Shown here one piece after another: positions 5,868 through 23,946 of a DNA stretch of 32,000 bases. Source of the DNA: Halomicrobium mukohataei DSM 12286 (GTDB lineage Archaea; Halobacteriota; Halobacteria; Halobacteriales; Haloarculaceae). The first letter of the stretch is position 1, and each line of letters begins with the position of its first letter. The notes under the pieces are model-generated. The model was not told the origin of the DNA and searched no databases. It saw only the letters and a program-made list of their open reading frames with translations. The position numbers and the translations under genes are program-made. The stretch is from assembly GCF_000023965.1 (NCBI RefSeq), contig NC_013202.1, forward strand, positions 2,820,001 to 2,852,000, written 5' to 3'.

Positions 5868-6440
5868 TTACGGTAGCAGCGACCGCTTCGAGAGGTCGAC
5901 GGTCACGTCGAGATGGTACTGAGTCCATCCGTCGGCGTCGGGCTCGCGGTAAGAGAGGGGCACGGCGTCGAAATGGCCACGGAGCGTGTAGGTTCCGGTG
6001 TCGACGACTCGCTGGCCGTGGATCTCGTACTGTGCGCCGACCGACTCGCCGCCCTCCAGCGTGTTCGTGAGCGGGGTGTTGTCGAGGTGGGCGCTGTTGG
6101 TCGTGACTTCGACCCGATCGGTCTCCTCGTACTGGTCCGACAGCAGGAGGATCGCGTCGGGTCCGCGTTCGCCGGGTGGGGACAAGCCGAGCATGCCGAA
6201 CGGCCAGACGCCCGTCGTCCGGATCTCGATTGGCTTCTCGCCGGTGTTCCGGAGCGTGAGCGCGAGCGTGCCGGGGCTGTCGACCGTCACGTTCCGGTCG
6301 ACGGGAGTTACATCGAGTGCGAGTGGGGCAGCGATGTCGTCGACAGCGACGGCGCTCACGGTATACTCCGTGTCGGCCAGACAGCCCGCGAGCCCGCTCA
6401 TAGCCGCGGTGGCGAGGCCCAGATAGCGGCGTCGGTTCAT
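5868..6440 (-). CDS. Tat-signal lipoprotein (190 aa), function unknown, coupled to the ABC-2 transporter
   Basis: MNRRRYLGLATAAMSGLAGC contains a twin-arginine motif plus a lipobox Cys. Its ATG overlaps the upstream ATPase stop (ATGA at 6437-6440). Confidence 0.7.
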   Translation of the reverse strand: MNRRRYLGLATAAMSGLAGCLADTEYTVSAVAVDDIAAPLALDVTPVDRNVTVDSPGTLALTLRNTGEKPIEIRTTGVWPFGMLGLSPPGERGPDAILLLSDQYEETDRVEVTTNSAHLDNTPLTNTLEGGESVGAQYEIHGQRVVDTGTYTLRGHFDAVPLSYREPDADGWTQYHLDVTVDLSKRSLLP

Positions 6441-7186
6441 CGGTCCACCTCCTCCGTACGAACGGAGTCGCCGGTGAGTTGCATAAACACCGCTTCGATG
6501 GTCGCGTCGGCCGACAGATCACATCGGTCCCGGAGTTCGGCCAGCGAGCCCTCGGCGACGAGTCGGCCCCGGTGGAGAATGCCGACGCGATCACAGACCA
6601 GTTCGACCTGTCCGAGCACGTGACTGGAGAAAAACACCGTCGCACCGCGTTCGGATTCGACTTCGACGACCGCTCGAACGAGGGACGCCCCGTGGGGATC
6701 GAGCCCGGTAAAGGGTTCGTCGAGTACGAGGAGGTCGGGGTCACCGACGAGACTCATCGCGAGGGCCAGCCGCTGTTCCATCCCCTGTGAGAACTCACCG
6801 GCGGGCTTGTCGATCGCGTCGACCAGCCCGACGCGTTCGAGCAGCGATCGCGGCGTGTCGTCGGCGCGCTTCGTGTCGATGACGAGTTCGAGGTGGCGTC
6901 GCGCCGAGAGATCGTCGTAAGTGTCGAACCGGTCAGGGCAGATGCCGACCCGCTGGTGACAGGCGACCACGTCGTTCCACGGATCGTGGCCGAGGACTCG
7001 CGCCGTGCCGGCGGTGGGCTTGATGTAGTTCAACAGGAGGTTGATCGTCGTCGACTTGCCGGCACCGTTGGGCCCGAGGAAGCCGTACACCTCGCCTCGC
7101 TCGACGGTCAGGTCCAGCTCTGAGAGCGCCGTCGAGTCGCCGTACTGCTTCGTGAGGCCGTCCGTTTCGATGGCGGACGGCGTCAC
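6437..7186 (-). CDS. ABC transporter ATP-binding protein (ABC-2 / CcmA-like subfamily)
   Basis: Walker A is GPNGAGKST, the signature is FSQGMEQRL and Walker B is LLVLDEP. The GTG start overlaps the permease stop (GTGA at 7183-7186). Confidence 0.9.
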   Translation of the reverse strand: MTPSAIETDGLTKQYGDSTALSELDLTVERGEVYGFLGPNGAGKSTTINLLLNYIKPTAGTARVLGHDPWNDVVACHQRVGICPDRFDTYDDLSARRHLELVIDTKRADDTPRSLLERVGLVDAIDKPAGEFSQGMEQRLALAMSLVGDPDLLVLDEPFTGLDPHGASLVRAVVEVESERGATVFFSSHVLGQVELVCDRVGILHRGRLVAEGSLAELRDRCDLSADATIEAVFMQLTGDSVRTEEVDR

Positions 7187-8085
7187 GCGAGATCACCCCG
7201 TTCGAAGCGATAGCGAGCCAGTGCCAACGGCAGGATACACCAGGCCACCAGCACGACGAGCCCGAGCGCTTCGTGGAGGTAAGCCGGTGCCGTGGTCTGG
7301 CCGAACGCCGCGTCGACGACGAACGCGTTCACGTTCGTTCCCGGCTGGAGCTTGGTCAGGACCACGCTGTAGCCCGCCCCGGAGTTTCCGACACCGAGGA
7401 GCCAGTTCGTCACGACGCCGTAGGCGCGTTCCGGAGTGAGACGGAGCAAGACGAACAGGAGTCCGTCGGCCGGCGCGGCGTACGGATCGGCGGCGCTGCC
7501 GGTGAGTGCCCCGTAGACGGGGCCACTCGCGAGGCGCTGCCAGAAGACCGTGAGCAGGAGATAGAAGCCGCCGAAGACCAGCGCTGTCGCGCGGACCGTG
7601 CTGGTCGTCACCGCCGACACCGCCGTGGCGACGGAGACGAGTGTGAGGACGTACAGCAGCGTGACGAGCGTGACTCCGAGAAAGAGCAGCGGCGAAAAGA
7701 GCCCGAAGCGAACGGCTCCGAGCAGCCCCAGGACGATCGCGGCCACGGTGACCGGGACCGCGAGGCCGACGCTCCGGCCGACAACCTTCCCGACGAGGAT
7801 GTCGGTGCGGGTCACCGGGAGCCCCAACAGGAACTTCAGGCTGCCGGTGTCTCGTTCCTCGACGATCGCGCGGTAGCTCAGCAGCAACACGCCGAGTGGG
7901 AGGAGAACGCTCCCAGCCGACTGGAGGAAGGCGACCGTCATGTTCTGTCCGAGTTCGTCCCAGGCGAGGTACTGCGGGCGGTACGCCCAGCCGACGAGGA
8001 GGAGGGCCAATAACCAGGGACCTTTGGCGGTGAGAAGCGCGGACGCCTCGTTGCGAGCGATCGGAAACCATCGCGGGAGGGCCAT
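7183..8085 (-). CDS. ABC-2 family transporter permease (NosY-like)
   Basis: About 6 TM segments, lying directly upstream of and overlapping the ATPase gene. I prefer the start at ATG 8085 (MALPRWFPIARNEAS...) because a TATA-like box lies 26-31 nt upstream. An alternative in-frame ATG is at 8127. Confidence 0.75.
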   Translation of the reverse strand: MALPRWFPIARNEASALLTAKGPWLLALLLVGWAYRPQYLAWDELGQNMTVAFLQSAGSVLLPLGVLLLSYRAIVEERDTGSLKFLLGLPVTRTDILVGKVVGRSVGLAVPVTVAAIVLGLLGAVRFGLFSPLLFLGVTLVTLLYVLTLVSVATAVSAVTTSTVRATALVFGGFYLLLTVFWQRLASGPVYGALTGSAADPYAAPADGLLFVLLRLTPERAYGVVTNWLLGVGNSGAGYSVVLTKLQPGTNVNAFVVDAAFGQTTAPAYLHEALGLVVLVAWCILPLALARYRFERGDLA

Positions 8086-8107
8086 ACGATGGGGTCTGTC
8101 TCGCCAT

Positions 8108-8121
8108 CTGATAATACTACC
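8108..8121 (-). promoter_or_regulatory. Putative TATA box for a leaderless ABC-2 operon transcript
   Basis: The reverse strand reads GGTAGTATTATCAG. The TATTAT core lies 26-31 nt upstream of ATG 8085, in otherwise GC-rich DNA. Confidence 0.35.
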
Positions 8122-8153
8122 TATCATACGGAAAGTTGTAGGTCTTTACAAGA

Positions 8154-8628: not shown

Positions 8629-8946
8629 TCACGGCCCGTGTTCGAGCCGGTGTTCCCGGTAGAGGACGGCGGTAAAGAGGGCGAACGGGAGCAATCCGAC
8701 GAGTGTCAGACCGAGACCTGCTGCGAGCAGCGGCGGCGGTGTCAGCGATTGGACGACCCAGAGTGTGACGACAGCGCCGGAGGCGATGAAAGACAGGACG
8801 CTGAGGATGACCAGCCCGAAACTCCACTTGCGGAGTTGCCAAGGGAGGTTCTGGGACTTGCGGAGCATCTGGATCAGGACGGCGATCGGCGGGATCACGA
8901 GTGCGACGAGCTGGAACAGCGCCAGTGCGACATCGAGGTCGGTCAT
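8629..8946 (-). CDS. Small membrane protein (105 aa, about 3 TM), unknown function
   Basis: Hydrophobic ORF whose ATG overlaps the stop of the upstream propeller gene (ATGA at 8943-8946). Confidence 0.6.
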   Translation of the reverse strand: MTDLDVALALFQLVALVIPPIAVLIQMLRKSQNLPWQLRKWSFGLVILSVLSFIASGAVVTLWVVQSLTPPPLLAAGLGLTLVGLLPFALFTAVLYREHRLEHGP

Positions 8947-9848
8947 CGCTCACCCTCCGCTCGGCGCTCAACGATGGTACCACCGTCGCCGACGGCCACG
9001 TCGGTCGGGCCGAGCGCGACCGAGCGAAGCACCCGCTCGGTCTCGGTGGCTTCGAGCGTCCATCGCTGGTCGCTGGTACAGCGCGTGATCCCACCGCCGT
9101 CGCCGACGGCGACGATCCGGTCCGTCTCGGCGTCGATGCCGCGGAGCGTCTGTGGCGCTGCTCTGACCGGCGTCCAGTTGCGACACGGGACATCGTACCG
9201 GTAGACGAGACCGCCGTCGCCGCTGACGAATAGTCCCGTCTGGGCGGCCGTGAGGTCTGTGAAGTTGACCTGTGCGTTCCTGATCCCGATACGCGTCCAC
9301 TCGTCGTCGCGCAGAGCGTAGACGTTGCCGCTTGTGTCGGTGCCGTAGACGATGCTGTCGGCGGCGTCGAGTGCCGACAGCGTCGATCCCGAGCCGGGTT
9401 TGACGACGCCACCGAACGTCGGGCACTGATCGGCGTCGAGGTCCGCCCGAACCACTTCACCCGAGCTGTTGGCGACGACGAGTCGCTCCTCACCGGGCTC
9501 GCCGGAGATCGTAATAGCACACCAGGAACTCGTCTTCTCGTCGGGCGCGGAGAAGTCAGACTTGCGTTCGGAAGCGGTGTCCCACAGACCGAGGACACCG
9601 CTAGAGCCAGCGAACCAGCTCCGTTCGCCGTCGTCGGAGACGGTCGCGGCGTTCAGCGTCGCCGACCGTGCGTTGGGGCCACTGTCGATGACGACCCGCC
9701 AGTCGCCGTCCGGCGGTCGTCCGACGACAGTCCCTGCCTCTCCGACGGCGAGGGGACCGGCTGCCGTCCAGACGGCACTCGTCAGCGTCTTGCTCGTCGG
9801 GGAGCTGACGGTACGCCAGCGTGGCTGGGTCGACGACTCCGTCGTCAC
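8943..9848 (-). CDS. Seven-bladed beta-propeller protein (Ycf48/BNR-like fold), no obvious signal peptide
   Basis: Seven repeats of the xVGxxGxhh...W type: AVGEAGTVVG, FAGSSGVLG, VANSSGEVV, TDTSGNVYA, VSGDGGLVY, AVGDGGGIT, AVGDGGTIV. It is a clear paralogue of 15816-16784. I chose the start at in-frame GTG 9848, preceded by GAGGTG. The longer ORF-track start overlaps the upstream membrane gene and is Arg-rich. Confidence 0.7.
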   Translation of the reverse strand: MTTESSTQPRWRTVSSPTSKTLTSAVWTAAGPLAVGEAGTVVGRPPDGDWRVVIDSGPNARSATLNAATVSDDGERSWFAGSSGVLGLWDTASERKSDFSAPDEKTSSWCAITISGEPGEERLVVANSSGEVVRADLDADQCPTFGGVVKPGSGSTLSALDAADSIVYGTDTSGNVYALRDDEWTRIGIRNAQVNFTDLTAAQTGLFVSGDGGLVYRYDVPCRNWTPVRAAPQTLRGIDAETDRIVAVGDGGGITRCTSDQRWTLEATETERVLRSVALGPTDVAVGDGGTIVERRAEGER

Positions 9849-9903
9849 GGCTCGACACCTCGTGTGTGTCCCGCTCGAGGTCGACAGACGGCAGCAAGGC
9901 CGT

Positions 9904-10221
9904 TCAGACGGCCGCAAACAGGAGTGTCGAGAGCGCCCACGTCCCGAACCCGACGGCCAGACTCGCGGGCCAGGTGGTGTGGCAGAACCGTCGGACGACT
10001 GCACTCCAGACCAGCGGGGAGAGGACGACCCCGAGGACCGGAATCCAGCCGAGCAGGAAGTCGACCGTACCGGCGAGCAGGAGGCCGACGAGTGCCGTCG
10101 CCGTCGCTTCGGGGTAGGTGACCGCTTCCGCTTCGGGGATCACCTCGAGGCCGGCGTAGATCGCCGGGCCGAACAGGAAAAATCCCGCGAACAGTCCGAC
10201 GACCGCATGGACGAGACTCAT
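9904..10221 (-). CDS. Small membrane protein (105 aa, about 3 TM), unknown function
   Basis: Hydrophobic ORF MSLVHAVVGLFAGFFLFGPAIYAG... Its ATG directly abuts the stop of the upstream small ORF (TGAATG). Confidence 0.65.
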   Translation of the reverse strand: MSLVHAVVGLFAGFFLFGPAIYAGLEVIPEAEAVTYPEATATALVGLLLAGTVDFLLGWIPVLGVVLSPLVWSAVVRRFCHTTWPASLAVGFGTWALSTLLFAAV

Positions 10222-10458
10222 TCATCTGGCACCTCGCTCCGGCCGAGCGCTGTCGTTGCGGTCGGCTGGTTCCGTAGCGACGTGTTCGAGGGGCTGTCCG
10301 GGCTGCCGTTCGAACACGTAGACGACGGGTCGGTCTGGATCCGCAATCTGATAGCGCTCGCTGCGAGGGGTCGGTCCAGCGAGCGAGCGAAGTAGTTCGG
10401 TCAGTTCGGTCAGGTCGAGCTGTGCGTCCGTGTCGGTGTCATGTTTTTCGTGGATCAT
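10222..10458 (-). CDS. Small acidic soluble protein (about 78 aa), hypothetical
   Basis: MIHEKHDTDTDAQLDLTELTELLRSLAG... has an acidic composition typical of haloarchaeal proteins, and its stop abuts the next gene's ATG. A GTG at 10593 would give 123 aa, so the start is uncertain. Confidence 0.4.
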   Translation of the reverse strand: MIHEKHDTDTDAQLDLTELTELLRSLAGPTPRSERYQIADPDRPVVYVFERQPGQPLEHVATEPADRNDSARPERGAR

Positions 10459-10627
10459 GTACTGTGTCGGTAGCGTCTGTGTCCGGCCGGCCACCTCGGA
10501 CGGCCCGGACACGGTCGGTCGAAGAAACGTTGCGTGGTCGGCCTCGTGTGTCCGTAGAAGCGACGACGGTGCCAGGGAGGACCCGACATCCACAGCACCG
10601 CAGTGTCGCGTCGCCCGCCACTGGCTG

Positions 10628-11011
10628 TCAGGTGCCGCTGGCAGTGGCGTCGGCGTGGTCGTTCGACAGACACGACAGCATCCAGCGGCGGTAGGCGAGC
10701 ATCGCGTTCTCGCCGTGGTCGGTCAGACTGTACCCCTTGGTTCGTCCGTCGATCGGGTAGGTCGTGACGAACCCCTGCTCCTGGAGCTTGTCCAGGTTCT
10801 GGTAGACACGGCTCCTGTTGATCTCCGTGTGCCAGATTCGCTCGAAAGAGCGCGTGATCGCCGCGCCACTTGGCCAGGTCTCGTCGCTGTCGACGATGAC
10901 AAGCAACACGTCGCGCTGGAACCCGGTCAAGTCGAGGACTGATTCGAGACGGTGAGTCACGTCGCTCTCAGTCGCCGTTTGTCCGTGGCGTTCAGATTTA
11001 TCTCTGGTCAT
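10628..11011 (-). CDS. PadR-family winged-helix transcriptional regulator (127 aa)
   Basis: GFQRDVLLVIV..., SRVYQNLDKLQEQGFV and DGRTKGYSLTDHG match the PadR wHTH pattern. The ATG is at the complement of 11009-11011. Confidence 0.8.
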   Translation of the reverse strand: MTRDKSERHGQTATESDVTHRLESVLDLTGFQRDVLLVIVDSDETWPSGAAITRSFERIWHTEINRSRVYQNLDKLQEQGFVTTYPIDGRTKGYSLTDHGENAMLAYRRWMLSCLSNDHADATASGT

Positions 11012-11021
11012 CTTCGATACT

Positions 11022-11038
11022 GGCGGGACTGTCCCGCC
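11022..11038. promoter_or_regulatory. Perfect 8-1-8 palindrome just upstream of the PadR start: candidate operator, or the coxA terminator stem
   Basis: GGCGGGAC-T-GTCCCGCC lies 11 nt upstream of the PadR ATG and about 90 nt downstream of the coxA stop. Confidence 0.3.
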
Positions 11039-11127
11039 ACGATCGCGGCCGGGAGTCGAACCCGACACCTGGCCTGAGTACCGGGCGCGATCAACGGACG
11101 CAGCCACGACGTCGAGGGATCGACCGA

Positions 11128-12663
11128 TCAGTCCCGAGACGTGTCGTCTCGTGTCCGCCACTCGTGGTCGATCGACCGAGGAACAGGACAGTTCTCGACC
11201 AGCTCGCCGTTCCGAACGGCCGTGACGACGTTCAACAGCCAGAGGAGCTGGCCGGTCGCGATTATGTACGCCCCGACAGTCGCTATTGTATGCCATACAG
11301 CAAAGTCGGCCGGATAGGTAGCCATCCGACGGGGTAGTCCGAGCGCGCCGGCCACGAGGAGCGGACAGAACGCGAGGACGGTTCCGACCGCAGTGAGCCA
11401 GAAGTGTGCTCGTGCGAGGCCGGGATCGTACCACCGACCGACGATCAGCGGGAACCAGTAGTAGCTCGCGGCGAACAGTGCCGTCGTGATTGTGCCGACC
11501 AGCAGGAGGTGGAAGTGGCCGACGACGAAGGCGGTGCCGTGCAAGACGAGGTCGACGGGGATCGAGGCGAGGAACACACCAGTGACACCACCGAGGACGA
11601 ACAACGAGACCGCGGCGAGGCAAAACAGCATCGGCGCAGTCAGGCGGACCCTGCCGTTCCAGAGGGTCGTGATCCAGTTGAACGTCTTGACGGCGCTCGG
11701 GACGGCAATCGCCAGCGAGACAGCCATAAAACTCGCCTGCAACCGTGGATCGATGCCCGTCGTGAACATGTGGTGGGCCCAGACGCCAAACGAGAGCACG
11801 CCGATGGCCAGTGTCGAGTAGACCACGTACCGGAACCCGAACAGCCGGCGACCGGCGAACCGGGGGAGAATGTGACTGATGAGTCCCATCGCTGGGAGGA
11901 TGAGGATGTACACCTCGGGGTGGCCGAAGAACCAGAACAGGTGCTGAAAGAGGATCGGTCCACCGCCGTCCGTCGCGAAGAACACCGTGCCGACGTGGCG
12001 ATCGAGGAGCAACATCAACAGCGTGCTCCCGAGTACCGGGAACGCGAACAGCACCAGGCCGGCGGTCGTCAGCATCGACCAGCTGTAGATGTCGAGAGTC
12101 GCCCAGGTCACCGACTCCCGTTCCATCACGATGGTGACGATCAGGTTAACCGCGCTGAGGATCGTGCTGACGCCGGCCAGATGGAGACCGAGCAAGAGGA
12201 AGTCGAAGCCGAGTCCTGGACCCTCGACCGACAGCGGTGGGTACATGGTCCAGCCGGTCGCCGGTGGGGCGAGCCAGCCGACCCCCAGCAAGTGCCCGAC
12301 CGTCCCCGCCCGAGCCAGTACGAGAGCCGGCGGCAAGAGCCAGAACGCCGTCGCGTTGACTCGCGGGAAGGCCATGTCGTCGGCACCGATCAACAGCGGG
12401 ACGAGGTAGTTGGCGAAACCGAACGCGACCGGCGTCGCGAAGAAGAACAGCATCGTCACACCGTGTGTCGTGAAGAAGGCGTCGTATGTCCCGGGCGGCC
12501 AGAGGTCGACGGCCGGCGAGAGCAACTCCGTCCGCACTGCGAGCGCGTCCGTCCCACCCCAGACGCCAGAGAGGGCACCGAACAGCAGATAGTACCGCCC
12601 GATGTCGCGGTGATCGAGCGTCGTCAGCCACGGAGAGAGGACACCGGGCCGTCGGTCGGTCAT
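11128..12663 (-). CDS. coxA: Haem-copper oxidase subunit I (A-type cytochrome c/quinol oxidase CoxA), 511 aa, with no subunit II or III gene nearby
   Basis: All canonical ligand motifs are present: FTTHGVTMLFFF (haem a His), WFFGHPEVY (CuB His and cross-linked Tyr), WAHHMFTTG (CuB His pair), VVGHFHLLLVG (haem a3 / haem a His). The ATG overlaps the stop of the upstream gene (ATGA at 12660-12663). Confidence 0.9.
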   Translation of the reverse strand: MTDRRPGVLSPWLTTLDHRDIGRYYLLFGALSGVWGGTDALAVRTELLSPAVDLWPPGTYDAFFTTHGVTMLFFFATPVAFGFANYLVPLLIGADDMAFPRVNATAFWLLPPALVLARAGTVGHLLGVGWLAPPATGWTMYPPLSVEGPGLGFDFLLLGLHLAGVSTILSAVNLIVTIVMERESVTWATLDIYSWSMLTTAGLVLFAFPVLGSTLLMLLLDRHVGTVFFATDGGGPILFQHLFWFFGHPEVYILILPAMGLISHILPRFAGRRLFGFRYVVYSTLAIGVLSFGVWAHHMFTTGIDPRLQASFMAVSLAIAVPSAVKTFNWITTLWNGRVRLTAPMLFCLAAVSLFVLGGVTGVFLASIPVDLVLHGTAFVVGHFHLLLVGTITTALFAASYYWFPLIVGRWYDPGLARAHFWLTAVGTVLAFCPLLVAGALGLPRRMATYPADFAVWHTIATVGAYIIATGQLLWLLNVVTAVRNGELVENCPVPRSIDHEWRTRDDTSRD

Positions 12664-13865
12664 CGGTCTCGCCACCCGGCTCCCGTGACGTGTGTCCGCG
12701 CGAGTTCCCAGACACCGACGGCACCGATCGCAGTCGCGGACCCGAACGCGAGGACGGGGTCGACGGCGAAGAGGACGCCACCAAGTAGCGGTCCAGCGGC
12801 GACGACGACGGTTCGACGACGGTCGCTGGCCGGTCGGCAAATGGCACCACCGGCACGACGGGCGACGCCCGCGAGGGAGCGAGTGCCGTAGATCGCGAAG
12901 AGACCGCCCACGGCCAGCGGGGTCGGTGGCACACTCACGAGGACGAGGGGGAACGCCGCGACGACGAGGCTCCCGTAGACGAGGAGTGGTCTCGACCCGA
13001 TGGAACCGACGAGTCGGGGGCCAGCGGTGCGGGCCAGTGCTCCGGCGACGATCTCGACGAGCAAGAGGAGCCCGAAGGTCGCCGCCGATCCCAACTGGAT
13101 GCCGAGAACGGCCAGCTCGACGTCGAGAACCCTCGTGACGACCAAGACGACGAACACGGAGACCACGCCCATCGCCACCTCCAGCAGGGAATCCCCGAGG
13201 TGGGGGACAGTGCGGACACGCCGTGACGAGGGCTGCGATCCGGTGTCGTCGAGCGACAGCCAGAGCGCGCCCGCCGTCCCACCCAGCGCGACAGTCAGTG
13301 CGAGGACGATGCGAAAGCCCGCGGAAAACGACGCCGAGAGCACTAACACGATGATCGAGAGCACGAGTGGGCCGAGCACCCAGACGGGTCCGCCGGGTCG
13401 ACGAGTCGATCTCGACGCAGGTGGCCAGGCGTCCGCGAGCGGGACTCCGATCGCGGTGCGAGACCAGTACCAGGCCGCCGGACCGAGCCCACCGGCTGTG
13501 ACGGCCACCCAGAGAGCTAGCGTACTGTCCGTGACCGTCGGAGCGACCAGCCAGGCCAGCACTCCGGCGGTCGCACCAGCCACGAGCACTGGAAGCCTAC
13601 CGGTGTCTCGGCGATCCAACGCAGTGATCGCGAGCCAGAACGTGCCGAACGCACCGATCGCGACCGGACCGACGCCACGCACGCTGAGGTACTCCGGGAG
13701 AAATCGAACAACGACGTACAGTGCTCCGTCGAAGGTCGCCACCGATGCGACGGCCGCGAAGAGATCCGTCAGCGTGCGGTCGACGCGCACACCGTCGACG
13801 ATCTCGAACTGCTGGTCGGTCTCGGGACGGTGTCGCTCCGACTCGGCGACTGGCGGGTCGTCCAT
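12660..13865 (-). CDS. MFS-like polytopic membrane protein (401 aa)
   Basis: About 10-12 hydrophobic segments. ITALDRRDTGRLPVL resembles MFS motif A (D-R-x-x-G-R). The start MDDPPVAESE is preceded by GGAGGT, lies 2 nt after the upstream stop, and the gene is translationally coupled to coxA. Confidence 0.65.
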   Translation of the reverse strand: MDDPPVAESERHRPETDQQFEIVDGVRVDRTLTDLFAAVASVATFDGALYVVVRFLPEYLSVRGVGPVAIGAFGTFWLAITALDRRDTGRLPVLVAGATAGVLAWLVAPTVTDSTLALWVAVTAGGLGPAAWYWSRTAIGVPLADAWPPASRSTRRPGGPVWVLGPLVLSIIVLVLSASFSAGFRIVLALTVALGGTAGALWLSLDDTGSQPSSRRVRTVPHLGDSLLEVAMGVVSVFVVLVVTRVLDVELAVLGIQLGSAATFGLLLLVEIVAGALARTAGPRLVGSIGSRPLLVYGSLVVAAFPLVLVSVPPTPLAVGGLFAIYGTRSLAGVARRAGGAICRPASDRRRTVVVAAGPLLGGVLFAVDPVLAFGSATAIGAVGVWELARTHVTGAGWRDR

Positions 13866-13867
13866 CT

Positions 13868-15433
13868 TCAGGACCTCCGTTCGAGGGCGTTCCGGAATCG
13901 GTGTGTGAGCCACCGCCACCAGCGACCGAGACGTGCGGCGGCGGAGACGACGAGCAGCCACAGCCGGCGGGCGACCACCGTGAGTGGGACGATCGCACGC
14001 CGGAGGAGTGCCCAGCCTCGTTCGAGGTAGGCGGACAGTCGCGTCCAGCGGTCGTCGTCGTGGAGTGGGGTCGGAAGCGTCTCGAGGCCGGCGGTGTCTG
14101 CAGTGTCGGTGTGTGTCCGGACTCGTGTCCTCGCGGCCGAGAGCCACCCGCCGATCGCGAACAGTCCGAAGACGAAGGCGAGGTATGCCACGGAAAGTGC
14201 GACCGTGGCGAACTGGACGACAGATCGGATCGCGCTGACGCCGTCAGAGAGACGATCGGCGACAGTCTCTCGCCCGTAGGCACCGACGACTTCGGCCAGA
14301 AAGATCGGCGTGAACACGAGGTTCAGTATCGTCGTATACTCGCCCGAGAGGGTCCCGCCGACGGTCCCTTGCCGTGGGACGATTCCGAGACCGTTCAGCA
14401 CGTAGTGACTAACGACTCCAGCGACGATCGCGGCGGTCGCCAGTGTCACGAACAGTGTCGCAGCCATACGCCAGCCGTAGTATCGCCGGTAGAGACTGAG
14501 CAGCGGCGGGATCAGGAGGTCGGCGTAGATGAACGACAAGACACCGCCGAAGGGGAGGCCGTTGCGCCACAGGACCAGTGCGAACGGGACGTTGCCGACC
14601 GAACACATGAACGTCAGGATACCGATCAGGACCGCGACGACGGTGTTAGTGAGGACACCGACGAACGTCGACTGACTGCCAAACAGCGCCGTCCACCACG
14701 CCTGGGGCACCGCCGCACCGACGACGCCGGCGATCACGAACCCCAAAACGAGATCGCGGCCAATCATCTCCCAATCTTTGATCGTAGCTCGCGCGACGCT
14801 GCGCAGACTCTGTACGGTCAGGACCGCCCCGCCCTCGTCGTCGCTCTGTGCCCGAGCGACTTGGAGGCAGCCGCCACAGCAGTAGGTCCCGAGATCGCCA
14901 CCGACACGCTCTCTCGTTGCGTTTTCGGGATCGGTGATCGTCGCATCACAGGTCGGACAGGTCTCCTCGTCGTTGCGCCGAACGTGGGCTCGTGCGCGCT
15001 CGATCCACGCCTCCGGGACGACGTGCGTAAACGCCAGCACCATCACGACCACGGCAACGACGCCGCCGAGGTACTCGCCGACGACGAACTGCCAGCCCAG
15101 CAGGACCCACATGGCGAGGCCGAGTTCGATCACCAGATCCGTGCTGGCGAACATGAACGCGCCGAGCGAGGCCGGTGCCGAAGCGCCCTTCTTGAACAGG
15201 GTCTTTGTGGTCCCGACCGCCGAATACGAGCAACTCGACGACGCCGCTCCGAACAGTGCCCCCAGCGACACCTCGCGAACGCCGTCACCGCCGAGGACTG
15301 CCGTCATCGTCTGTCTGTCGACGAACACCTCGACAGCGCCCGACAGCGTCAATCCGAGGACGAGAGCCCACCAGGAGTCCCAGGCCATCTCGGCCGTGAG
15401 TGCAACCGCCGTCCGTAGTGTGTCGATGTACAT
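13868..15433 (-). CDS. DUF318 / SO_0444-like permease (putative Cu/Zn transporter) with an inserted TRASH-like cysteine motif
   Basis: GAASSSCSYSAVGTTKTLFKKGAS recalls the SO_0444/ArsP-type permease family. The central loop carries CPTC-x22-CCGGC, which fits the TRASH pattern C-x2-C-x19-22-C-x3-C. I set the start at MYIDTLR (ATG, complement of 15431-15433). Confidence 0.75.
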   Translation of the reverse strand: MYIDTLRTAVALTAEMAWDSWWALVLGLTLSGAVEVFVDRQTMTAVLGGDGVREVSLGALFGAASSSCSYSAVGTTKTLFKKGASAPASLGAFMFASTDLVIELGLAMWVLLGWQFVVGEYLGGVVAVVVMVLAFTHVVPEAWIERARAHVRRNDEETCPTCDATITDPENATRERVGGDLGTYCCGGCLQVARAQSDDEGGAVLTVQSLRSVARATIKDWEMIGRDLVLGFVIAGVVGAAVPQAWWTALFGSQSTFVGVLTNTVVAVLIGILTFMCSVGNVPFALVLWRNGLPFGGVLSFIYADLLIPPLLSLYRRYYGWRMAATLFVTLATAAIVAGVVSHYVLNGLGIVPRQGTVGGTLSGEYTTILNLVFTPIFLAEVVGAYGRETVADRLSDGVSAIRSVVQFATVALSVAYLAFVFGLFAIGGWLSAARTRVRTHTDTADTAGLETLPTPLHDDDRWTRLSAYLERGWALLRRAIVPLTVVARRLWLLVVSAAARLGRWWRWLTHRFRNALERRS

Positions 15434-15470
15434 CTTTGTCAAGCGAGAGTTGCGATCGGACCGAGCCAAA

Positions 15471-15497
15471 CCGACCGCACTGCGGTCGTGCGGTCGG
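15471..15497 (-). terminator. Strong 10-bp hairpin downstream of the HMA-domain gene (putative terminator or attenuator)
   Basis: CCGACCGCAC-tgcggtc-GTGCGGTCGG lies about 53 nt after the stop at 15551 and is followed on the transcribed strand by TTTGG. The arms share the 9-mers CGACCGCAC / GTGCGGTCG with the hairpin at 8154-8179. Confidence 0.4.
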
Positions 15498-15550
15498 GGC
15501 ACATCGGTCCCCGATAGCGCCGATACTACGATGGCCGAAAAAGGACCGTG

Positions 15551-15754
15551 TCAGTCCTCGACAGTGTAGCCGAGTGACTCGATCGTCTCGACGACCGATT
15601 CGATGGCACTGACCGGCCCCGCGACGGCCACCTCGTCGGCCGGTGCGTCGGCCGCGACCGTCTCGATACAGCACTGGTTAGCGATCTCTTCCTCGACCAT
15701 TTCCTCACAGTTCCGACAGACCATTCCGTCGACGTCGATGATGAACTTCGACAT
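15551..15754 (-). CDS. copZ: Heavy-metal-associated (HMA) domain protein, CopZ-like metallochaperone (67 aa)
   Basis: MSKFIIDVDGMVCRNCEEMVEEEI... carries the GMxCxxC metal-binding motif and has ferredoxin-like-fold length. Confidence 0.8.
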   Translation of the reverse strand: MSKFIIDVDGMVCRNCEEMVEEEIANQCCIETVAADAPADEVAVAGPVSAIESVVETIESLGYTVED

Positions 15755-15778
15755 CGACTGTCCATTCGATCCGTGGCA

Positions 15779-15812
15779 CCCTAAAAATGTAACTTTGATT
15801 ATATTTATTGGC
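15779..15812 (-). promoter_or_regulatory. AT-rich promoter region for the HMA-domain gene
   Basis: CCCTAAAAATGTAACTTTGATTATATTTATTGGC is a sharp AT-rich block. On the reverse strand, CATTTTTAGG ends about 25 nt upstream of ATG 15754. Confidence 0.3.
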
Positions 15813-15815
15813 TGT

Positions 15816-16784
15816 TCAGCCGAACCGTTCGAGGATCGTCCCGTCGCTTCCGACGGCCACGTCGGAGTAAGTGTCACGACCCAGCGCACAACCCTGTAAG
15901 GTCTTGGGAGTGTCCGTGGGCTCTTTGGTCCAGTTGTTCTCTTCGAGCGCGAAGATGTCGCCGCTGTTGCCCACGGCGAGGCCGCGACCGCCCATCCGAT
16001 CGACGGCGTGGAGTGTCTTCTCGCTCGCGTGTAACTGGAGCCAGTTGTAGCCGTTGTAGACGAAGATGGAACCGTCGTCCGCAGTCGCGTCGGCGTGGTT
16101 CCCGTCGATGGCGGCAATATCAGTCAATCCACCTTCCGCACCACGAATGCCGATCGGTGTCCAGCGACTGCCGCTGTTGCGGACGACCGTGCCACCGGTG
16201 TCGACGACGTAGACGGTCCCGTCAGCTACGTCTACCGCCGACGCACTCTCGCCACCGGTCGGCTTCGTGACCGTCTCGCGCCAGCGGACCCGTCCGTTCG
16301 ACCAGTGGCCGGTGAGCAGCTCGCCCGAACTGTTTATGAGATAGACGGTCTCGCCGTTGGCGCGACCGCTGACGGCTACGTCCGTCCAGCTACTGGTCTT
16401 TTGTCTCGGCGCACTGAGGTCGGTCACACTGCCGCCACGAACGTCGTACCGGCCGACCACGCCGCTGGAACCACAGAGCCAGAGATACCGACCGTCGTCG
16501 GTCGCGTCGACGGCAGCGAGTGGGTTTTCGCCGCCAGTCGGCCCGTCTGAGACGACCGCCTCCCACGCGTCGCCGTTCCGCGTCAGGACGAGTCCGCTCT
16601 CACCGACGGCGAAAGGACCGTCGACGCTCATCACAGCGTCCGTGAGCCCCATCCGCGTCGGTGTGTCGACGTCGATCCACCCGTGTGGTGTCTGTTGGGT
16701 CGTCTGACACCCAGCCAGTGTCGTGCCGGCAGCTCCGAGGCCGACCAGAAACTGTCGTCGGCCGACGTTGTGCTCGTCGATCAT
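15816..16784 (-). CDS. Tat-lipoprotein seven-bladed beta-propeller (Ycf48/BNR-like fold), paralogue of 8943-9848
   Basis: MIDEHNVGRRQFLVGLGAAGTTLAGCQ gives a Tat motif plus lipobox. Blade motifs are AVGESGLVL, CGSSGVVG, INSSGELL, VDTGGTVV, TADDGSIFV, AVGNSGDIF, AVGSDGTIL. The ATG overlaps the stop of the upstream DUF2182 gene (ATGA at 16781-16784). Confidence 0.75.
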   Translation of the reverse strand: MIDEHNVGRRQFLVGLGAAGTTLAGCQTTQQTPHGWIDVDTPTRMGLTDAVMSVDGPFAVGESGLVLTRNGDAWEAVVSDGPTGGENPLAAVDATDDGRYLWLCGSSGVVGRYDVRGGSVTDLSAPRQKTSSWTDVAVSGRANGETVYLINSSGELLTGHWSNGRVRWRETVTKPTGGESASAVDVADGTVYVVDTGGTVVRNSGSRWTPIGIRGAEGGLTDIAAIDGNHADATADDGSIFVYNGYNWLQLHASEKTLHAVDRMGGRGLAVGNSGDIFALEENNWTKEPTDTPKTLQGCALGRDTYSDVAVGSDGTILERFG

Positions 16785-17557
16785 GGGAAGGGGAGTCCGA
16801 TCGGCAACAACACGAGGACGCCAGCAACCGCCGAGAGCGTGCCGATCGCCGCGATCAGTTCCTCGTTCCACGGGGGCAACCGTTCGACCACGACGAATCC
16901 CGTCACCGTGACCATCCAGAACGGGTCCATCGTCCCGACCAGCACCAGGAGCAGGAAAAACGGCCAGGTCGTCGTGGCACAGTCGCGTCCGGCCACGAAT
17001 CCGTCACGAATCGCCTGTTGTGGCTCTTTTGAACCCATCTGGGCCGGAGCACAGCAGTTCCCGAGAGCGCGCCGCTTGGCGTCGGTAAACTGGTACCCAC
17101 CGATCAACAGCAGGGTACCCCCCACGACGAGGTTCGGAGCTCCAGTGACGACGGTGGCGATCCCGACCAGCGCCTCGAACAGCAGCGGAACAGTCCCGAT
17201 GACCGTCCACACCACGCTGTAGCTCAAGAGGAAGCCCGAGAGTGCAATCGTCGGCCGCTCGGTCAGTTGACGGTCGTAGTGCCTGATCGCCGGCACCATC
17301 GCGGGATACATCATCGCCGCCATCATCACGCCCCACGAGAGCAGGTACGTGGCGACACCGATCGCCCCGTCGGCCAGCGCACCCGCTTCGAGTGCGCCCG
17401 GGTCGGTCATGCCACGGGTCGAGGGCGGTGTCGGCATCGGCACCCACCCGGCGAACAGGGCGACCCACAGGGCGACTGCGGCCGCGAGCGCGCCGGTCGT
17501 GGCGTGGCGTTGATCGTCGTCGATACGTGACAGGAACTCGGTGATTGTTCTGGTCAT
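16781..17557 (-). CDS. DUF2182-like predicted metal-binding integral membrane protein
   Basis: A polytopic ORF with the Met-rich segment WGVMMAAMMYPAMVPAI, which I recall as characteristic of DUF2182. Confidence 0.7.
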   Translation of the reverse strand: MTRTITEFLSRIDDDQRHATTGALAAAVALWVALFAGWVPMPTPPSTRGMTDPGALEAGALADGAIGVATYLLSWGVMMAAMMYPAMVPAIRHYDRQLTERPTIALSGFLLSYSVVWTVIGTVPLLFEALVGIATVVTGAPNLVVGGTLLLIGGYQFTDAKRRALGNCCAPAQMGSKEPQQAIRDGFVAGRDCATTTWPFFLLLVLVGTMDPFWMVTVTGFVVVERLPPWNEELIAAIGTLSAVAGVLVLLPIGLPFP

Positions 17558-17668
17558 AGGTTGCAGTGTTGTCGAGGCGGGTGGTACGGAGCGAGGCCGA
17601 CATCTGTGGAGCGGTGAATCCTCGGCGGCGGCCGATCACACTGGCGGGGTGGTTCGGGAGCGTCTGGG

Positions 17669-18805
17669 TCAGTCACGGCTATGTCGAGCGTAGCTCGGTG
17701 TCTCTCGAACGGGTGTGAACGGACCTGGAGCGGCCGTCCGCTCGCCTATCGTTGCGATCCGGACGACGAACGAGAGCAACACCGTGAACGGGAAGACTAC
17801 GGCGGCGACCGCGAGACCGACGAGCAATTCGAGGACGAACGGGTGTGCCACCAGCGGTCGTCCGTTCGCGAAGACCAGAATCGTCAGGCCAGCGATCAGG
17901 AACGCCCCCAGCCCGGTGTAGCCGACGATCCGGGAGAGCCGCGAGAGCGCCTGCTTGATGTACAGCGCCTTGTAGTACTGTCTGAGCAGGTCGAGCGCAA
18001 TCGAGAGCTGTTTCAGCTCTTCGATCAGAGTCCGGGCCGGCGGCGAGAGGTCGTCACCGTGGTCTTCGAGGAGCTTCCGGGCCGTCTGGACGTTGTACGG
18101 GTAGTTGTCGCCCATCATCGGGACGAGCAGTTCCTCGATCGGCTGGCGCTGGCCGGTGACCCGAGACTGGATGTGAGCGACCTGCGAGCGGAGGACGGCG
18201 ACGAACGTCGCCCCGGTGTCGTGGGCTGGCCCCGTCGTCGCGTCGAGTTCGTCGGCCAGTCGTTCGACTCGTTCGTCGACCACCGCGACGAGGGCGGCCA
18301 GAAACGGTCCCGGATCGTTCGAGCTGACACCGGCGGCCGGGTCGACCGCTTCGATCTCGGCGCGGAACTGACGGACACTGTTCATCTGTTCTCGGATCTC
18401 GTCGAGCGATCCCACGACGCGGGCCACCGTCAACTGGTTCACGGAGACGACGATCGGCACGAACGAGAATAGCCCGGAGATGATCGCGGTGAACAGCCCG
18501 GTGACGAACCCGGCGTTGCTCATCCCTACGACATCGAGTCCGATCAAGGCGACGAGCGTCGCGTAGACGACACCGGTCAGCAACACCGCGATCGACCACC
18601 GGTTCCCGTCCAGCAGGAACCACCGCCGGACCGACCCCCAGCTGTGATCGTCTAGCAGGGACACGACCACGAGTACGCCCGTGACGACGACTAGGCGAGC
18701 GACGACGTAGAGGTAGTGTGCCCCCAGAGAAGTCGCCCGTACACTCAGCGTCCCGGCGACGGTAATCGCGCGGCGCACCCACTCACGCCGTGACTCGTCG
18801 CTCAT
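17669..18805 (-). CDS. Membrane protein of unknown function (378 aa): about 4 N-terminal TM, a central helical soluble domain, 2 C-terminal TM
   Basis: Clean ORF with an acidic soluble core. Its ATG overlaps the stop of the DUF389 gene (ATGA at 18802-18805). Confidence 0.65.
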   Translation of the reverse strand: MSDESRREWVRRAITVAGTLSVRATSLGAHYLYVVARLVVVTGVLVVVSLLDDHSWGSVRRWFLLDGNRWSIAVLLTGVVYATLVALIGLDVVGMSNAGFVTGLFTAIISGLFSFVPIVVSVNQLTVARVVGSLDEIREQMNSVRQFRAEIEAVDPAAGVSSNDPGPFLAALVAVVDERVERLADELDATTGPAHDTGATFVAVLRSQVAHIQSRVTGQRQPIEELLVPMMGDNYPYNVQTARKLLEDHGDDLSPPARTLIEELKQLSIALDLLRQYYKALYIKQALSRLSRIVGYTGLGAFLIAGLTILVFANGRPLVAHPFVLELLVGLAVAAVVFPFTVLLSFVVRIATIGERTAAPGPFTPVRETPSYARHSRD

Positions 18806-19869
18806 ATCACCGGCACCCCCTGAACGTTGCCCATCTCCACCTGCGCCAACACCAGTGCGAGCGCCACGACCGCGGCACAGAGTACTGCCAGTCGACGGAG
18901 CATCATACTCCGTGCACGGCGCATGTCGGCCATGCTCTCGGGGTGGTAGCCGAGGTACCAGAGGCTGATAATAGAAGCCAGGGTCATCGAGAGGATGTTG
19001 ACCAGCACGACGGCCACTTCGCCGACGATCGCTGCGGGGCGAGCCCAGGCCACGCCGACACCGATCACGCCGATCGGTGGCATCACGGCCGCAGCGATCA
19101 TCACGCCGACGAGGTCCATCGTCCCGCTCGTCGAGAGACTCAGCGCGCCCGCGAAACCGGCTCCCAGGGCCACGACGATCAAGAGGAAGTTGGGGGCCGT
19201 GTGGCTACTCACTTCCAGCAGCGTCCGGACCTCCGGGAAGTCGGAGACGATCGACGAGTACCGGACCAAGAAGGCAAAGCCAACGGCACTGATGAGCGCG
19301 ACGACGGCACCGGTCAGCTGGTACCTGACACTCTTCGTGTAGAGTCGGGGTGCATCGAGGACCGTCGCAACACTCGTCGCCATCACCGGGCCGATCAGCG
19401 GGGCGATGACCATCGCGCCGACGAGCACCGGCAGGGAGTTCAGCAACACACCGGCCGTCGCGACGATGGCGCTGATCGCAGTCATCAACAGGTAGATTAC
19501 CTGATCCGGGACCATGTTCGAGGCCTTCGAGACGAGTTCCCCCCGCGCGACTCCCTGATAGCCGAGCCCCTTGACCTCGTGGTACGGGTTCTCGCCCCGC
19601 CCGAGTCGGTCTGAGACCACTGCCTCGGGCTCGATCACGACGGTGTACAGCTCGTCGTCGATGTCGAGTTCCCTGAGCTTGGTCTGGATGTGTTCGACCG
19701 TCTGTGTCGGGAGTGGGAACTCGATGGCTGCGGTCTCCGTTCCGGCGTCGACCTCCTCGGTCAGCACGTAGTCGAGTTCGTTCTCTTCCAGTACCTCGGT
19801 GACGCGGTGGCGGGCGTTGTCCGTCAGGGTGAGAACCCGGACGACTCGCAAATCCTCTCGGGCCATCAC
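18802..19869 (-). CDS. DUF389 / TIGR00341-family membrane protein
   Basis: An N-terminal soluble domain (LRVVRVLTLTDNARH...) is followed by the hydrophobic region LLMTAISAIVATAGVLLNSLPVLVGAMVIAPLIGPVMA, which is typical of DUF389. Confidence 0.75.
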   Translation of the reverse strand: MMAREDLRVVRVLTLTDNARHRVTEVLEENELDYVLTEEVDAGTETAAIEFPLPTQTVEHIQTKLRELDIDDELYTVVIEPEAVVSDRLGRGENPYHEVKGLGYQGVARGELVSKASNMVPDQVIYLLMTAISAIVATAGVLLNSLPVLVGAMVIAPLIGPVMATSVATVLDAPRLYTKSVRYQLTGAVVALISAVGFAFLVRYSSIVSDFPEVRTLLEVSSHTAPNFLLIVVALGAGFAGALSLSTSGTMDLVGVMIAAAVMPPIGVIGVGVAWARPAAIVGEVAVVLVNILSMTLASIISLWYLGYHPESMADMRRARSMMLRRLAVLCAAVVALALVLAQVEMGNVQGVPVI

Positions 19870-20026
19870 TGGTCACCTGGCCGGGCGTCGCTCCACGCTC
19901 GTCGGTCTGTTCGTGTTTGTTGTCTCATGATAATCGGTAGCTGTGAGCTGGGACACTGCTGTGTGACCACTCGTACCGTCGACTGTGCCAGCCGTTCGCG
20001 CCGGTCGATACGGACGATTGACCGTG

Positions 20027-20587
20027 TCAGATCTGCAGGAACTGCTCTGGCGAAGGTGTTTCTTCGTCGAACGCAGCTGCATACAGCGACGCGAGCAACG
20101 ACCTGATCGCCTCGAGGCGATCACCGCCCAGTCCGTCGCAATTCGTCCCACAGCGCCCAAGAACCGGGCCGTCTCGAATCGCCACGAACGCGAGGCGACC
20201 GTGACAGTCCGGACATCGGATCGTCACGTGGTCGTACATCCACGCGACCTCGTGGTCGTACTCGCGGAGGCGATGTGCGAGTGCCAGCCAGACGTGGCGA
20301 TCTGCGGTCTGTCTCCCATCCGCGGCCCGTTTCAGGCGACGGAGCGCCAGTGCCCCACGCCGGTACAACACGTCGTCGTCCTCGTGGTGTCGTTGGTGAC
20401 ACCGCCTGAAGTGGGCGAGCAAACCCTCGTAGGAGGACTCGACTCGGCCGTTCGTCAGGAGACCGCCACGGTTGCCGGCCAACGAACCGTCCGTTACGGC
20501 CCGGTACCGGCGCCCGCGCTCGTCGTAGTGCTCTGAGTCAGTTAGCGGTGCTCCGGTGTCTGGACAAAATGCGTCGTTACCGATCAT
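20027..20587 (-). CDS. Hypothetical Cys/His-rich protein (186 aa)
   Basis: ATG-started ORF with a zinc-ribbon-like CPDCHGRL...GRCGTNCDG and a His-rich RRCHQRHHEDDD segment. I recognise no family. It is less acidic than its neighbours, hence the moderate confidence. Confidence 0.45.
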   Translation of the reverse strand: MIGNDAFCPDTGAPLTDSEHYDERGRRYRAVTDGSLAGNRGGLLTNGRVESSYEGLLAHFRRCHQRHHEDDDVLYRRGALALRRLKRAADGRQTADRHVWLALAHRLREYDHEVAWMYDHVTIRCPDCHGRLAFVAIRDGPVLGRCGTNCDGLGGDRLEAIRSLLASLYAAAFDEETPSPEQFLQI

Positions 20588-22836: not shown

Positions 22837-23433
22837 CTACTCAACAGTGACTACAGCACCAGCCCAAATGCTACCAATTGGCTGCTGCGCGTCGTTTGGG
22901 AACCCAGCCTGAATCTGAACGTCTCCAAAGCCGTCGCCCTCAAACGTCGCGTCCAGCTCTACGTTGACGTCTTCGTCTTCAGGTTGCAAGAACTGCTTGA
23001 CAGCCTTAAATTTATACGCGTCATAGTCAACTGGCAGGCTTGATGAGTGGGTGTACTCGAAGTTCTTTTTAATATCGCTGGCAGTGAAGTCAGATGCTCT
23101 CAGTGTCGGCTGTTCTGCATTCTCCGCTTCTACTAAAACAACGAAACTATGCTTGGCAGCGAAAAGAGGGGTTGACACTTCCCAGCTGGCACTGATCGTG
23201 GTATCTTCACCATAATAAATAGTGTAGTCATCAGCTGAGAGGTCAACATTATTTGCCACCTGAGGACTCACCTGACCGCCTTGGGTAGAATCCTCTTTGC
23301 TACCAGTTTGATTGCGAGTCCCTTCTCTACGAGATCCCAAGGCAGACTGCGATACCGTTGACGCCAAACTGACACCAGCAATGGCAGTACCACTCTGTTT
23401 CAGGAACTCTCGTTTGGAAATGTTGGAGTTCAT
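22837..23433 (-). CDS. Secreted protein with a Tat-like (KR variant) signal peptide, 198 aa, unknown function
   Basis: MNSNISKREFLKQSGTAIAGVSLASTVSQSALG has an S-K-R-x-F-L-K motif plus an h-region. The mature part is Ser/Thr/Asp-rich and looks beta-rich. I prefer ATG 23433 over the GTG at 23445. Confidence 0.65.
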   Translation of the reverse strand: MNSNISKREFLKQSGTAIAGVSLASTVSQSALGSRREGTRNQTGSKEDSTQGGQVSPQVANNVDLSADDYTIYYGEDTTISASWEVSTPLFAAKHSFVVLVEAENAEQPTLRASDFTASDIKKNFEYTHSSSLPVDYDAYKFKAVKQFLQPEDEDVNVELDATFEGDGFGDVQIQAGFPNDAQQPIGSIWAGAVVTVE

Positions 23434-23629
23434 TTTTGAACACACTCACAAAATTATTTCTTATTATAATAGATCTAATTAAAAAAGAAGTAATTACCTA
23501 AGTCATAAAGTATAAATTACACTATTGTGTCTGTTGATGCTTGCTCTTTAATCACCATTAGTTTTGGAATATAACACCCTGATTATGATTTGCAGAAAGA
23601 ATTTATTGGTCGGACGCCTGGATTTTCAT

Positions 23630-23854: not shown

Positions 23855-23946
23855 GATTTCCGCCACGGAGCTGATGTATATCTCACATAAACCAGCCAAC
23901 TACAAATTTTAATTGTGTAGAGTAGTTAGTCAGTCATAATTTCATT

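Follow-up and report, generated by a model that had tools for sequence, protein, structure and literature searches.

How copper is delivered to the buried CuB site of haem-copper oxidases is only partly understood in bacteria, and we know of no route to this site that has been defined in archaea. A locus of the haloarchaeon Halomicrobium mukohataei DSM 12286 puts the question in concrete form: why does a gene for oxidase subunit I (coxA) lie among genes for two transporters and a copper chaperone? The locus is part of a 32,000-nucleotide (nt) stretch of contig NC_013202.1 (positions 2,820,001 to 2,852,000), hereafter the window, whose own numbering is used throughout. A preliminary description had recorded on the minus strand a CopZ-like gene, a hairpin, a permease gene, an MFS-like gene, coxA and a PadR regulator gene, and had proposed a four-gene copper-supply/oxidase-maturation unit. 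All these elements and their junctions were recovered at the positions reported there, but the unit proved to comprise ~12 genes spanning 8629-20587, with CopZ as a variable member.

On balance, we consider it probable that the locus is a conserved haloarchaeal island in which an accessory A-type haem-copper terminal oxidase is encoded together with its own copper-delivery and assembly machinery. An accessory oxidase with a copper-insertion line is, we infer, the most economical reading, because the accessory genes never occur in island form without CoxA, CoxA is catalytically constrained, and HMA, TRASH and PpoB2 proteins travel together with it.

Gene order and conservation of the island

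The gene chain was established from an open reading frame (ORF) listing with translation and from Pfam and NCBIfam scans. At its centre is coxA (11128..12663, minus strand), which encodes a 511-amino-acid (aa) paralogue of A1-type haem-copper oxidase subunit I (COX1, 479 bits). It is preceded by the gene for a divergent, 12-transmembrane (TM)-type MFS protein of 401 aa (12660..13865, minus strand), whose stop codon overlaps the coxA start codon in the sequence ATGA at 12660-12663. The MFS gene itself begins 2 nt past the stop codon of a gene for a 521-aa ArsP_1/DUF318 permease (13868..15433, minus strand). Both junctions had been read in the same way in the preliminary description.

In a search of 151 genomes of the host family, close orthologues of the MFS protein (≥44% identity) were found in just five others, and the remaining matches were generic paralogues of ~35% identity. 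All five of these genomes had PpoB2, propeller, CopZ, ArsP, MFS, CoxA, PadR and second propeller genes with their order kept. Class-wide searches were performed with ArsP as query (401 Halobacteria genomes) and with CoxA as query, and the neighbourhoods of the matches were retrieved. The ArsP-MFS-CoxA triad with its flanks was present in 20 of 25 ArsP- or MFS-centred loci, in 5 further loci reached via CoxA, and in 12 loci of Natrialbales type, in which the left module runs divergently. The island was present in at least 35 of the 401 sampled genomes (~9%), and its carriers span seven families (f1, f2, f4, f5, f6, f8 and f9). When all ORFs of 26 linked loci were clustered, the consensus order was zf186, DUF389, DUF7972, (PpoB2), prop1, (CopZ), ArsP, MFS, CoxA, PadR, (tm3a), prop2, tm3b.

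An ArsP alignment was also used to scan ~186,000 species-representative genomes, from which 80 loci were kept. Approximately 33 of these were triad carriers, all Halobacteria; no island carrier outside Halobacteria was found among the 80 loci, and all bacterial ArsP matches were solo genes. The carrier genera include Halococcus, Haloprofundus, Haladaptatus, Halosimplex, Halomarina, Halorientalis, Halobaculum, Halarchaeum, Halorussus, Natrinema, Natrialba, Natronoglomus, Halomontanus, Saliphagus and others. The linkage of permease, MFS and coxA genes, whose failure to recur in other genomes had been named at the outset as an outcome that would speak against a functional unit, is therefore co-conserved in both surveys. 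MFS and CoxA form the tightest pair in the island; at one locus ArsP was relocated to the island end, and MFS and CoxA were still adjacent. Plasmid-borne islands were observed in three species: Haloferacaceae archaeon 50 (plasmid p3; locus L107), Haladaptatus halobius (L114) and Natrinema zhouii (L160). The plasmid copies, together with a CoxA tree that follows taxonomy only partly, suggest lateral spread of the island among haloarchaea.

Could the transporters be unrelated genes that came by accident to lie beside a redundant coxA copy? We give this reading almost no weight. The order repeats in dozens of species from seven families, neighbouring genes share bases or lie close together (the ATGA overlap and the 2-nt gap), and the loop variant of the permease described below occurs only beside CoxA. 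Chance adjacency is effectively refuted by the synteny data and can be excluded. A description of the island was not found in the literature searched, which is no proof that none exists.

CoxA and its partner subunits

The CoxA of the window has all six His ligands, the HPEVY motif and the K- and D-channel residues, in agreement with the earlier statement that this 511-aa protein retains every haem and CuB ligand motif. On the oxidase model TIGR02891 it scored 603.5 bits, just under the cut-off of 670.75. The six His and the equivalents of Tyr288, Lys362, Arg481/482 and Trp172 were invariant in all 25 linked CoxA proteins. On the residues retained, CoxA is a catalytically intact subunit I paralogue. 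The D-channel positions (N121, D132, N139, E286) varied in up to 8 of the 25 linked proteins and in none of 34 housekeeping copies, and the E286 equivalent was replaced in one linked copy. Proton pumping may thus be relaxed in part of the linked clade.

Linked CoxA copies are shorter (~510-545 aa) than housekeeping copies, have longer branches, and are without the hydrophobic N-terminal extension (an extra TM helix) of the latter. A CoxA phylogeny, one of the checks put forward in the preliminary description, was computed for 63 sequences. The 25 linked and 34 housekeeping copies were separable by a single change on the tree; the split was without support and the base of the linked group was not resolved. 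Three loci of family f6 (L061, L063 and L064) have CoxA paralogues that are without island genes, keep the N-terminal extra helix, and form a small clade that branches among the island CoxAs and not with the housekeeping copies.

The H. mukohataei genome consists of two replicons totalling 3.33 Mb (3.11 Mb and 222 kb). It yielded five COX1 matches, two COX2 matches and one COX3 match; one of the COX2 matches adjoins a plasmid ba3-type COX1. For its three A-type coxA genes the genome thus has a single A-type coxB, located 136 kb away from the island beside a ctaA. No COX2, COX3 or CtaA match was found within the window; those elsewhere in the genome were at C1:2683744, C1:1868434, C1:1673784 and C1:2684612. 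Sco1 and Cox11 gave no match in the genome. The fifth COX1 match (G000:C1:1886951-1888297) was much weaker (172 bits), ~6 kb from a housekeeping coxA and ~18 kb from coxC, and may represent a divergent member of the haem-copper family.

The absence of subunit II, subunit III and haem A synthase genes from the window bears out one half of the preliminary description of this coxA as an orphan. The other half, that such a context is unusual, did not stand. Haloarchaeal coxA, coxB and coxC genes often lie apart from one another; in Haloferax volcanii dispersal of coxA1, coxB1 and coxC1 is the rule (PMC8305020, supplement), and an orphan coxA is therefore not unusual. Related islands, moreover, carry coxB. 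In three of them (genomes G026, G101 and G045) tm3b is followed by a coxB paralogue whose CuA motif is complete, and in G026 and G101 coxC lies beside it. Further islands also have adjoining coxB-like matches, mostly with coxC, and the coxB-carrying islands include those of Halosimplex, Halorientalis and relatives. Because related islands encode a CoxB with a full CuA motif, the island CoxA is probably part of a real CuA-type terminal oxidase isoenzyme. The genes coxB and coxC were either lost from islands like that of the window or never in them. Haloarchaeal coxA copies that appear to be orphans can thus be organised accessory isoenzymes, not debris. Islands with their own coxB, mostly with coxC, were seen at loci L039, L040, L065, L106, L117, L131, L135, L165 and L192, the CuA motif being complete in those checked, and one coxB-bearing locus has a TFB-like gene between tm3b and coxB.

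The permease linked to CoxA

The permease matched Pfam ArsP_1 with 240.3 bits (cut-off 32.3) over model positions 2-294 of 294. The DUF318 assignment made earlier was thereby upheld. Its proposed likeness to SO_0444 was not: on the NCBIfam model SO_0444 (NF033936) the protein scored 78.1 bits, under the equivalog cut-off of 300. The permease shares with the SO_0444 Cu/Zn efflux and ArsP organoarsenical permeases its Pfam family and half-repeat motifs with conserved Cys; it differs from them by this low score and by a TRASH loop inserted in the centre of the protein.

In the window protein the loop consists of CPTC (residues 159-162), 22 residues and CCGGC (residues 185-189), exactly as described before, and it fits the TRASH/YHS pattern C-x19-22-C-x3-C (C162-x22-C185-x3-C189). 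The motif CxxC-x22-25-CCxxC was found in all 25 linked ArsP proteins first examined. In an alignment of 24 linked orthologues C159, C162, C185, C186 and C189 were invariant, as were C68 and C277, which sit in two pseudo-symmetric S-C-S segments. Variant loops were found in three islands, CPTCGM...FCGEAC in one and DPVCGM...YFC(S/C)xxC in two; we take the latter to be the classic YHS/TRASH signature. A weak match of the window loop was obtained to ATPase-cat_bd, a metal-binding domain family of cation ATPases (E 0.032). Five solo ArsP paralogues (~50% identity) were without either loop motif and ~100 aa shorter, lacking the long C-terminal helical extension (~100 aa) of the island permease. The loop motif was present in no solo ArsP checked, archaeal or bacterial, and the sole loop-bearing ArsP without a detectable CoxA was at a contig end. 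Judged from these alignments, the loop is probably a TRASH/YHS-type module, invariant in linked permeases, and the loop-bearing permease subfamily is specific to the island.

An AlphaFold2 model of the permease (predicted local distance difference test [pLDDT] 81.6) showed the loop as a beta-hairpin plus a helix, and helix breaks exactly at C68 and C277. A Foldseek search with this model revealed likeness, weak but of high probability, to two secondary transporters, YdaH of the AbgT family and ArsB. Arg/Lys-rich stretches on both sides of the loop would place it on the cytoplasmic face by the positive-inside rule. The sole PDB sequence match of ArsP was rejected as spurious. DUF7972-like genes (weak matches, ~30% identity) adjoin solo ArsP genes without an oxidase at loci L118, L145, L168 and L199, which hints at a partnership between ArsP and DUF7972 that does not depend on CoxA.

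The relatives of this permease give some weight to an alternative that we regard as unlikely, namely that the island serves homeostasis of, or stress by, copper or another soft metal. In that case CopZ, the TRASH-bearing permease and PpoB2 would export or buffer excess metal under the control of PadR, and the oxidase paralogue would be a passenger or beneficiary, for example by standing in for a metal-damaged or copper-starved housekeeping enzyme. The ArsP_1 relatives include SO_0444, whose members NCBIfam names Cu/Zn efflux transporters, and an arsP/DUF318-related gene matters under zinc stress in Shewanella. However, membership of the island permease in SO_0444 itself fails, and the metal genes never occur in the island arrangement without CoxA.

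Copper-chaperone homologues

The CopZ-like gene (15551..15754, minus strand) encodes a 67-aa HMA metallochaperone with the motif GMVCRNC and has its own AT-rich upstream region. The HMA assignment made earlier was borne out by 31.2 bits against a Pfam cut-off of 24.8; on the NCBIfam CopZ model the protein scored 30 bits and missed the cut-off of 91. A GC-rich hairpin, read directly from the sequence, lies in the gap between CopZ and the permease gene (~15471..15497, minus strand). CopZ was detected within or next to some of the islands only and is a variable rather than a core member.

Upstream of CopZ, the island includes a PpoB2/DUF2182 membrane copper-chaperone homologue with a Met-rich segment (16781..17557, minus strand). 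It matched Pfam PpoB2 with 159 bits (cut-off 28.7) over model positions 2-188 of 188, and it was present in 16 of the 26 linked loci. The founder of the family delivers copper to the enzyme encoded in its own operon, and specifically to that enzyme (PMC2855505). CoxA is thus accompanied by three families for which there is a copper precedent, HMA, TRASH and PpoB2. Because PpoB2 adds a second copper-chaperone family, an oxidase-centred copper supply, as proposed at the outset, is the best available reading of the island.

The same proteins bear on the stress-island alternative. TRASH and HMA proteins are classic resistance parts, the plasmid location of some islands is in keeping with such a role, and a patchy distribution suits an accessory trait. 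On the other hand, CopZ and PpoB2 are dispensable and CoxA is not, the CoxA-MFS pair being the fixed part of the island; neither a P1B-ATPase nor a multicopper oxidase came to notice in the islands, although no search was aimed at either. Because the metal genes vary while CoxA-MFS is fixed, a stress island fits less well than an oxidase with its own copper supply.

MFS protein

The MFS protein of the window scored 18.6 bits on MFS_1, below the cut-off of 33.4, and its homologues (36-41% identity) scored 53-75 bits, over that cut-off. An Atlas search assigned the protein to MFS_1 clusters with a score of 0.98. By these comparisons it is a true but divergent MFS member. The gene lies directly upstream of CoxA wherever it was detected, with 25-42% identity between orthologues. 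An MFS-CoxA fusion suspected at one locus was ruled out by a stop codon between the ORFs.

The preliminary description had likened this protein to the copper importer CcoA, which is defined by the copper-binding motifs MxxxM in TM helix 7 and HxxxM in TM helix 8 (PMC8406296, PMC6362234). Among 18-19 island MFS orthologues no conserved Met, His or Cys column was found, and several orthologues have a total of only 1-2 Met. The CcoA motifs are therefore absent, and the analogy fails on motifs. The invariant or near-invariant positions in these orthologues are Gly, Pro, Trp and Phe only; Glu271 and Arg351 are mostly conserved.

A fast-evolving MFS protein without metal ligands, whose translation is coupled to that of CoxA, would also suit a specialised oxidase complex. 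In such a complex the MFS protein and the ArsP-type permease, together with DUF389, DUF7972 and the small TM proteins, would be structural or accessory subunits. Alternatively, these proteins would move a substrate other than copper, for example a different metal, a precursor of haem, or a metabolite (a thiol or some other) tied to the electron donor of the oxidase. The size and topology of tm3a and tm3b match those of small oxidase subunits, DUF7972 paralogues also occur beside solo ArsP genes, and part of the clade shows relaxed D-channel residues. This reading draws its weight chiefly from the ligand-free MFS protein and from the many island members without an assigned role. We nevertheless judge it improbable: the invariant TRASH cysteines, PpoB2 and CopZ indicate a soft metal, the island encodes no cuproenzyme other than CoxA and, where present, CoxB, and the propellers show no cofactor ligands.

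Proposed copper route and comparison with known systems

How might an oxidase with its own copper-insertion line work? We infer that the island genes are co-transcribed and act in copper transport and oxidase maturation. CopZ, or another HMA chaperone where CopZ is absent, would pick up cytoplasmic Cu(I) and hand it to the TRASH loop of the permease at the cytoplasmic face; a hand-off of copper from HMA to TRASH proteins has been proposed in Halobacterium (PMC3600143). Cu(I) would then cross the permease past the invariant Cys68 and Cys277, at the breaks in two predicted helices, and exit either sideways or at the outer face. There the Met-rich membrane chaperone PpoB2, the lipoprotein propeller, or both would load nascent CoxA at CuB, and also CuA where subunit II is used. 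For subunits II and III, H. mukohataei would draw on the one coxB and the one coxC of its genome, both unlinked to the island. The MFS protein, translated with CoxA, may be an obligate partner, either an assembly scaffold or a transporter of a cargo other than Met/His-bound copper; its role is the least clear. For MFS genes that cluster with, and are needed for, an A-type oxidase there is a bacterial precedent (PMC10588857). PadR would govern expression of the island.

More specifically, and only tentatively, we propose that a TRASH-gated ArsP/DUF318 secondary permease takes the place held in bacteria by the P1B-ATPase CcoI, with PpoB2 as membrane chaperone and the MFS protein as obligate assembly partner, and that these constitute an undescribed, self-contained oxidase-metallating route. 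If true, no earlier pathway of CuB insertion would have been defined in archaea, and ArsP-family permeases would gain a physiological role that is new for them. The island is in any case a concrete, genetically testable candidate pathway for copper delivery to CuB.

Several observations weigh against copper supply as the function of the island. The isolated window loop scored 19.6 bits on TRASH_HVO_1752_C, below the cut-off of 27 (E 0.0011), and TRASH domains also bind Zn and Hg. Many islands are without CopZ and PpoB2, the MFS orthologues show no conserved copper-ligand column, and PadR is not a typical copper sensor. DUF389, DUF7972, zf186, the propellers and the small TM proteins may point to some other function. 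Furthermore, ~90% of the sampled haloarchaea mature their oxidases without the island, which therefore cannot be a general CuB route.

The proposed route has counterparts in part. In Rhodobacter capsulatus, the CcoA-CopZ-CcoI-SenC/PccA route supplies CuB of the cbb3-type oxidase, and copper goes through the cytoplasm prior to insertion (PMC4725013, PMC5829832, PMC8406296). As in the island, an MFS protein, CopZ and a membrane exporter with a cytoplasmic cysteine metal module are tied to one haem-copper oxidase. The island exporter, however, is an ArsP_1-type secondary permease, not a P1B-ATPase; its MFS protein is without MxxxM/HxxxM; the oxidase concerned is of A-type rather than C-type; and the host is archaeal. 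The island genes and the oxidase gene also lie together in one island, whereas the genes of the bacterial CcoA route are dispersed.

The PpoB1/PpoB2 operon of Marinomonas mediterranea resembles the island in that the gene for a COG5486/DUF2182 membrane protein adjoins a copper enzyme gene, and this protein delivers copper specifically to the enzyme of the neighbouring gene (PMC2855505). The partner there is a tyrosinase and not a membrane oxidase, whereas only ~60% of the islands contain PpoB2, which in them is coupled to a lipoprotein propeller. The nearest precedent for the MFS protein is that of the YhjE-like proteins, in which MFS members without CcoA motifs are genetically linked to an A-family haem-copper oxidase: YhjE-like genes cluster with cyoABCD, and E. 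coli yhjE, ydiM and yfcJ are needed for active bo3 oxidase (PMC10588857). These proteins belong to a different MFS subfamily, are found in bacterial hosts, and are not accompanied by a TRASH-permease, PpoB2 or propellers; their mechanism is likewise unresolved. In archaeal TRASH systems (Sulfolobus CopM/CopT/CopA and Halobacterium) a TRASH cysteine module is proposed, as in the island, to accept copper from small chaperones. The Halobacterium system comprises a TRASH-domain Lrp-family regulator (printed as VNG1197C) with HMA chaperones (PMC3600143). TRASH modules there are on regulators or chaperones that control a resistance ATPase, in contrast to that of the island, which is inside the loop of an oxidase-tied permease.

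Remaining island genes and flanking region

The island opens with zf186 (20027..20587, minus strand), a soluble Cys/His-rich protein of 186 aa that has no Pfam match and was present in 17 of the 26 linked loci. It carries CPDCHG...CGTNCDG cysteine/histidine clusters and could be a metal sensor or zinc-ribbon protein. The next gene encodes a DUF389 membrane protein (18802..19869, minus strand; Pfam DUF389, 106.8 bits; 21 of 26 loci), and its stop codon overlaps, again as ATGA, the start codon of a gene for a DUF7972-type helical membrane protein ('u378'; 17669..18805, minus strand; 20 of 26 loci). The latter has ~6 TM helices plus a helical domain and was assigned to DUF7972 clusters in the Atlas search (score 0.97). 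Its AlphaFold2 model (pLDDT 79) was all helical; no PDB relative was found by sequence, and Foldseek gave none better than E 0.05 (TM-score ~0.2).

PpoB2 is followed by prop1 (15816..16784, minus strand), a seven-blade-type beta-propeller whose start codon overlaps the PpoB2 stop codon (ATGA). It has a Tat signal (RRQFLVG) and a lipobox (LAGC), and by sequence has no relative in the PDB. The conserved positions of prop1 were the RR pair, the lipobox Cys and structural Trp, Gly, Ser and Glu. Apart from the twin-arginine and lipobox of prop1, conserved residues in both propellers were structural only, and neither showed conserved metal ligands.

Downstream of coxA, the PadR-family regulator (10628..11020, minus strand) matched Pfam PadR with 35.1 bits (cut-off 27) and follows CoxA in most linked loci. 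A perfect 8-1-8 palindrome (11022..11038, plus strand) just upstream of PadR is a candidate operator or coxA terminator; no second copy was found in the window. Promoter and terminator scans, made with bacterial-type models on this archaeal host, gave nothing useful. The downstream module (8629..10458, minus strand) consists of an acidic 78-aa ORF, tm3a (3 TM helices), prop2, a propeller paralogue without signal peptide, and tm3b (3-4 TM helices). In most linked loci prop2 and tm3b are kept after PadR; no relationship between tm3a and tm3b was detectable. The island gives physiological context to the ArsP_1 subfamily, DUF389, DUF7972 and the paired propellers.

Next to the downstream end of the island, the window contains a pair of genes for a NosY-like ABC-2 permease and an ATPase (6437-8127). 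This ABC transporter (6440-8127) was considered as a further island member and rejected, being not conserved with the island in the loci queried. On the other side of the island, GC content falls sharply to 42% at window positions 23001-24000, compared with ~65% for the genome.

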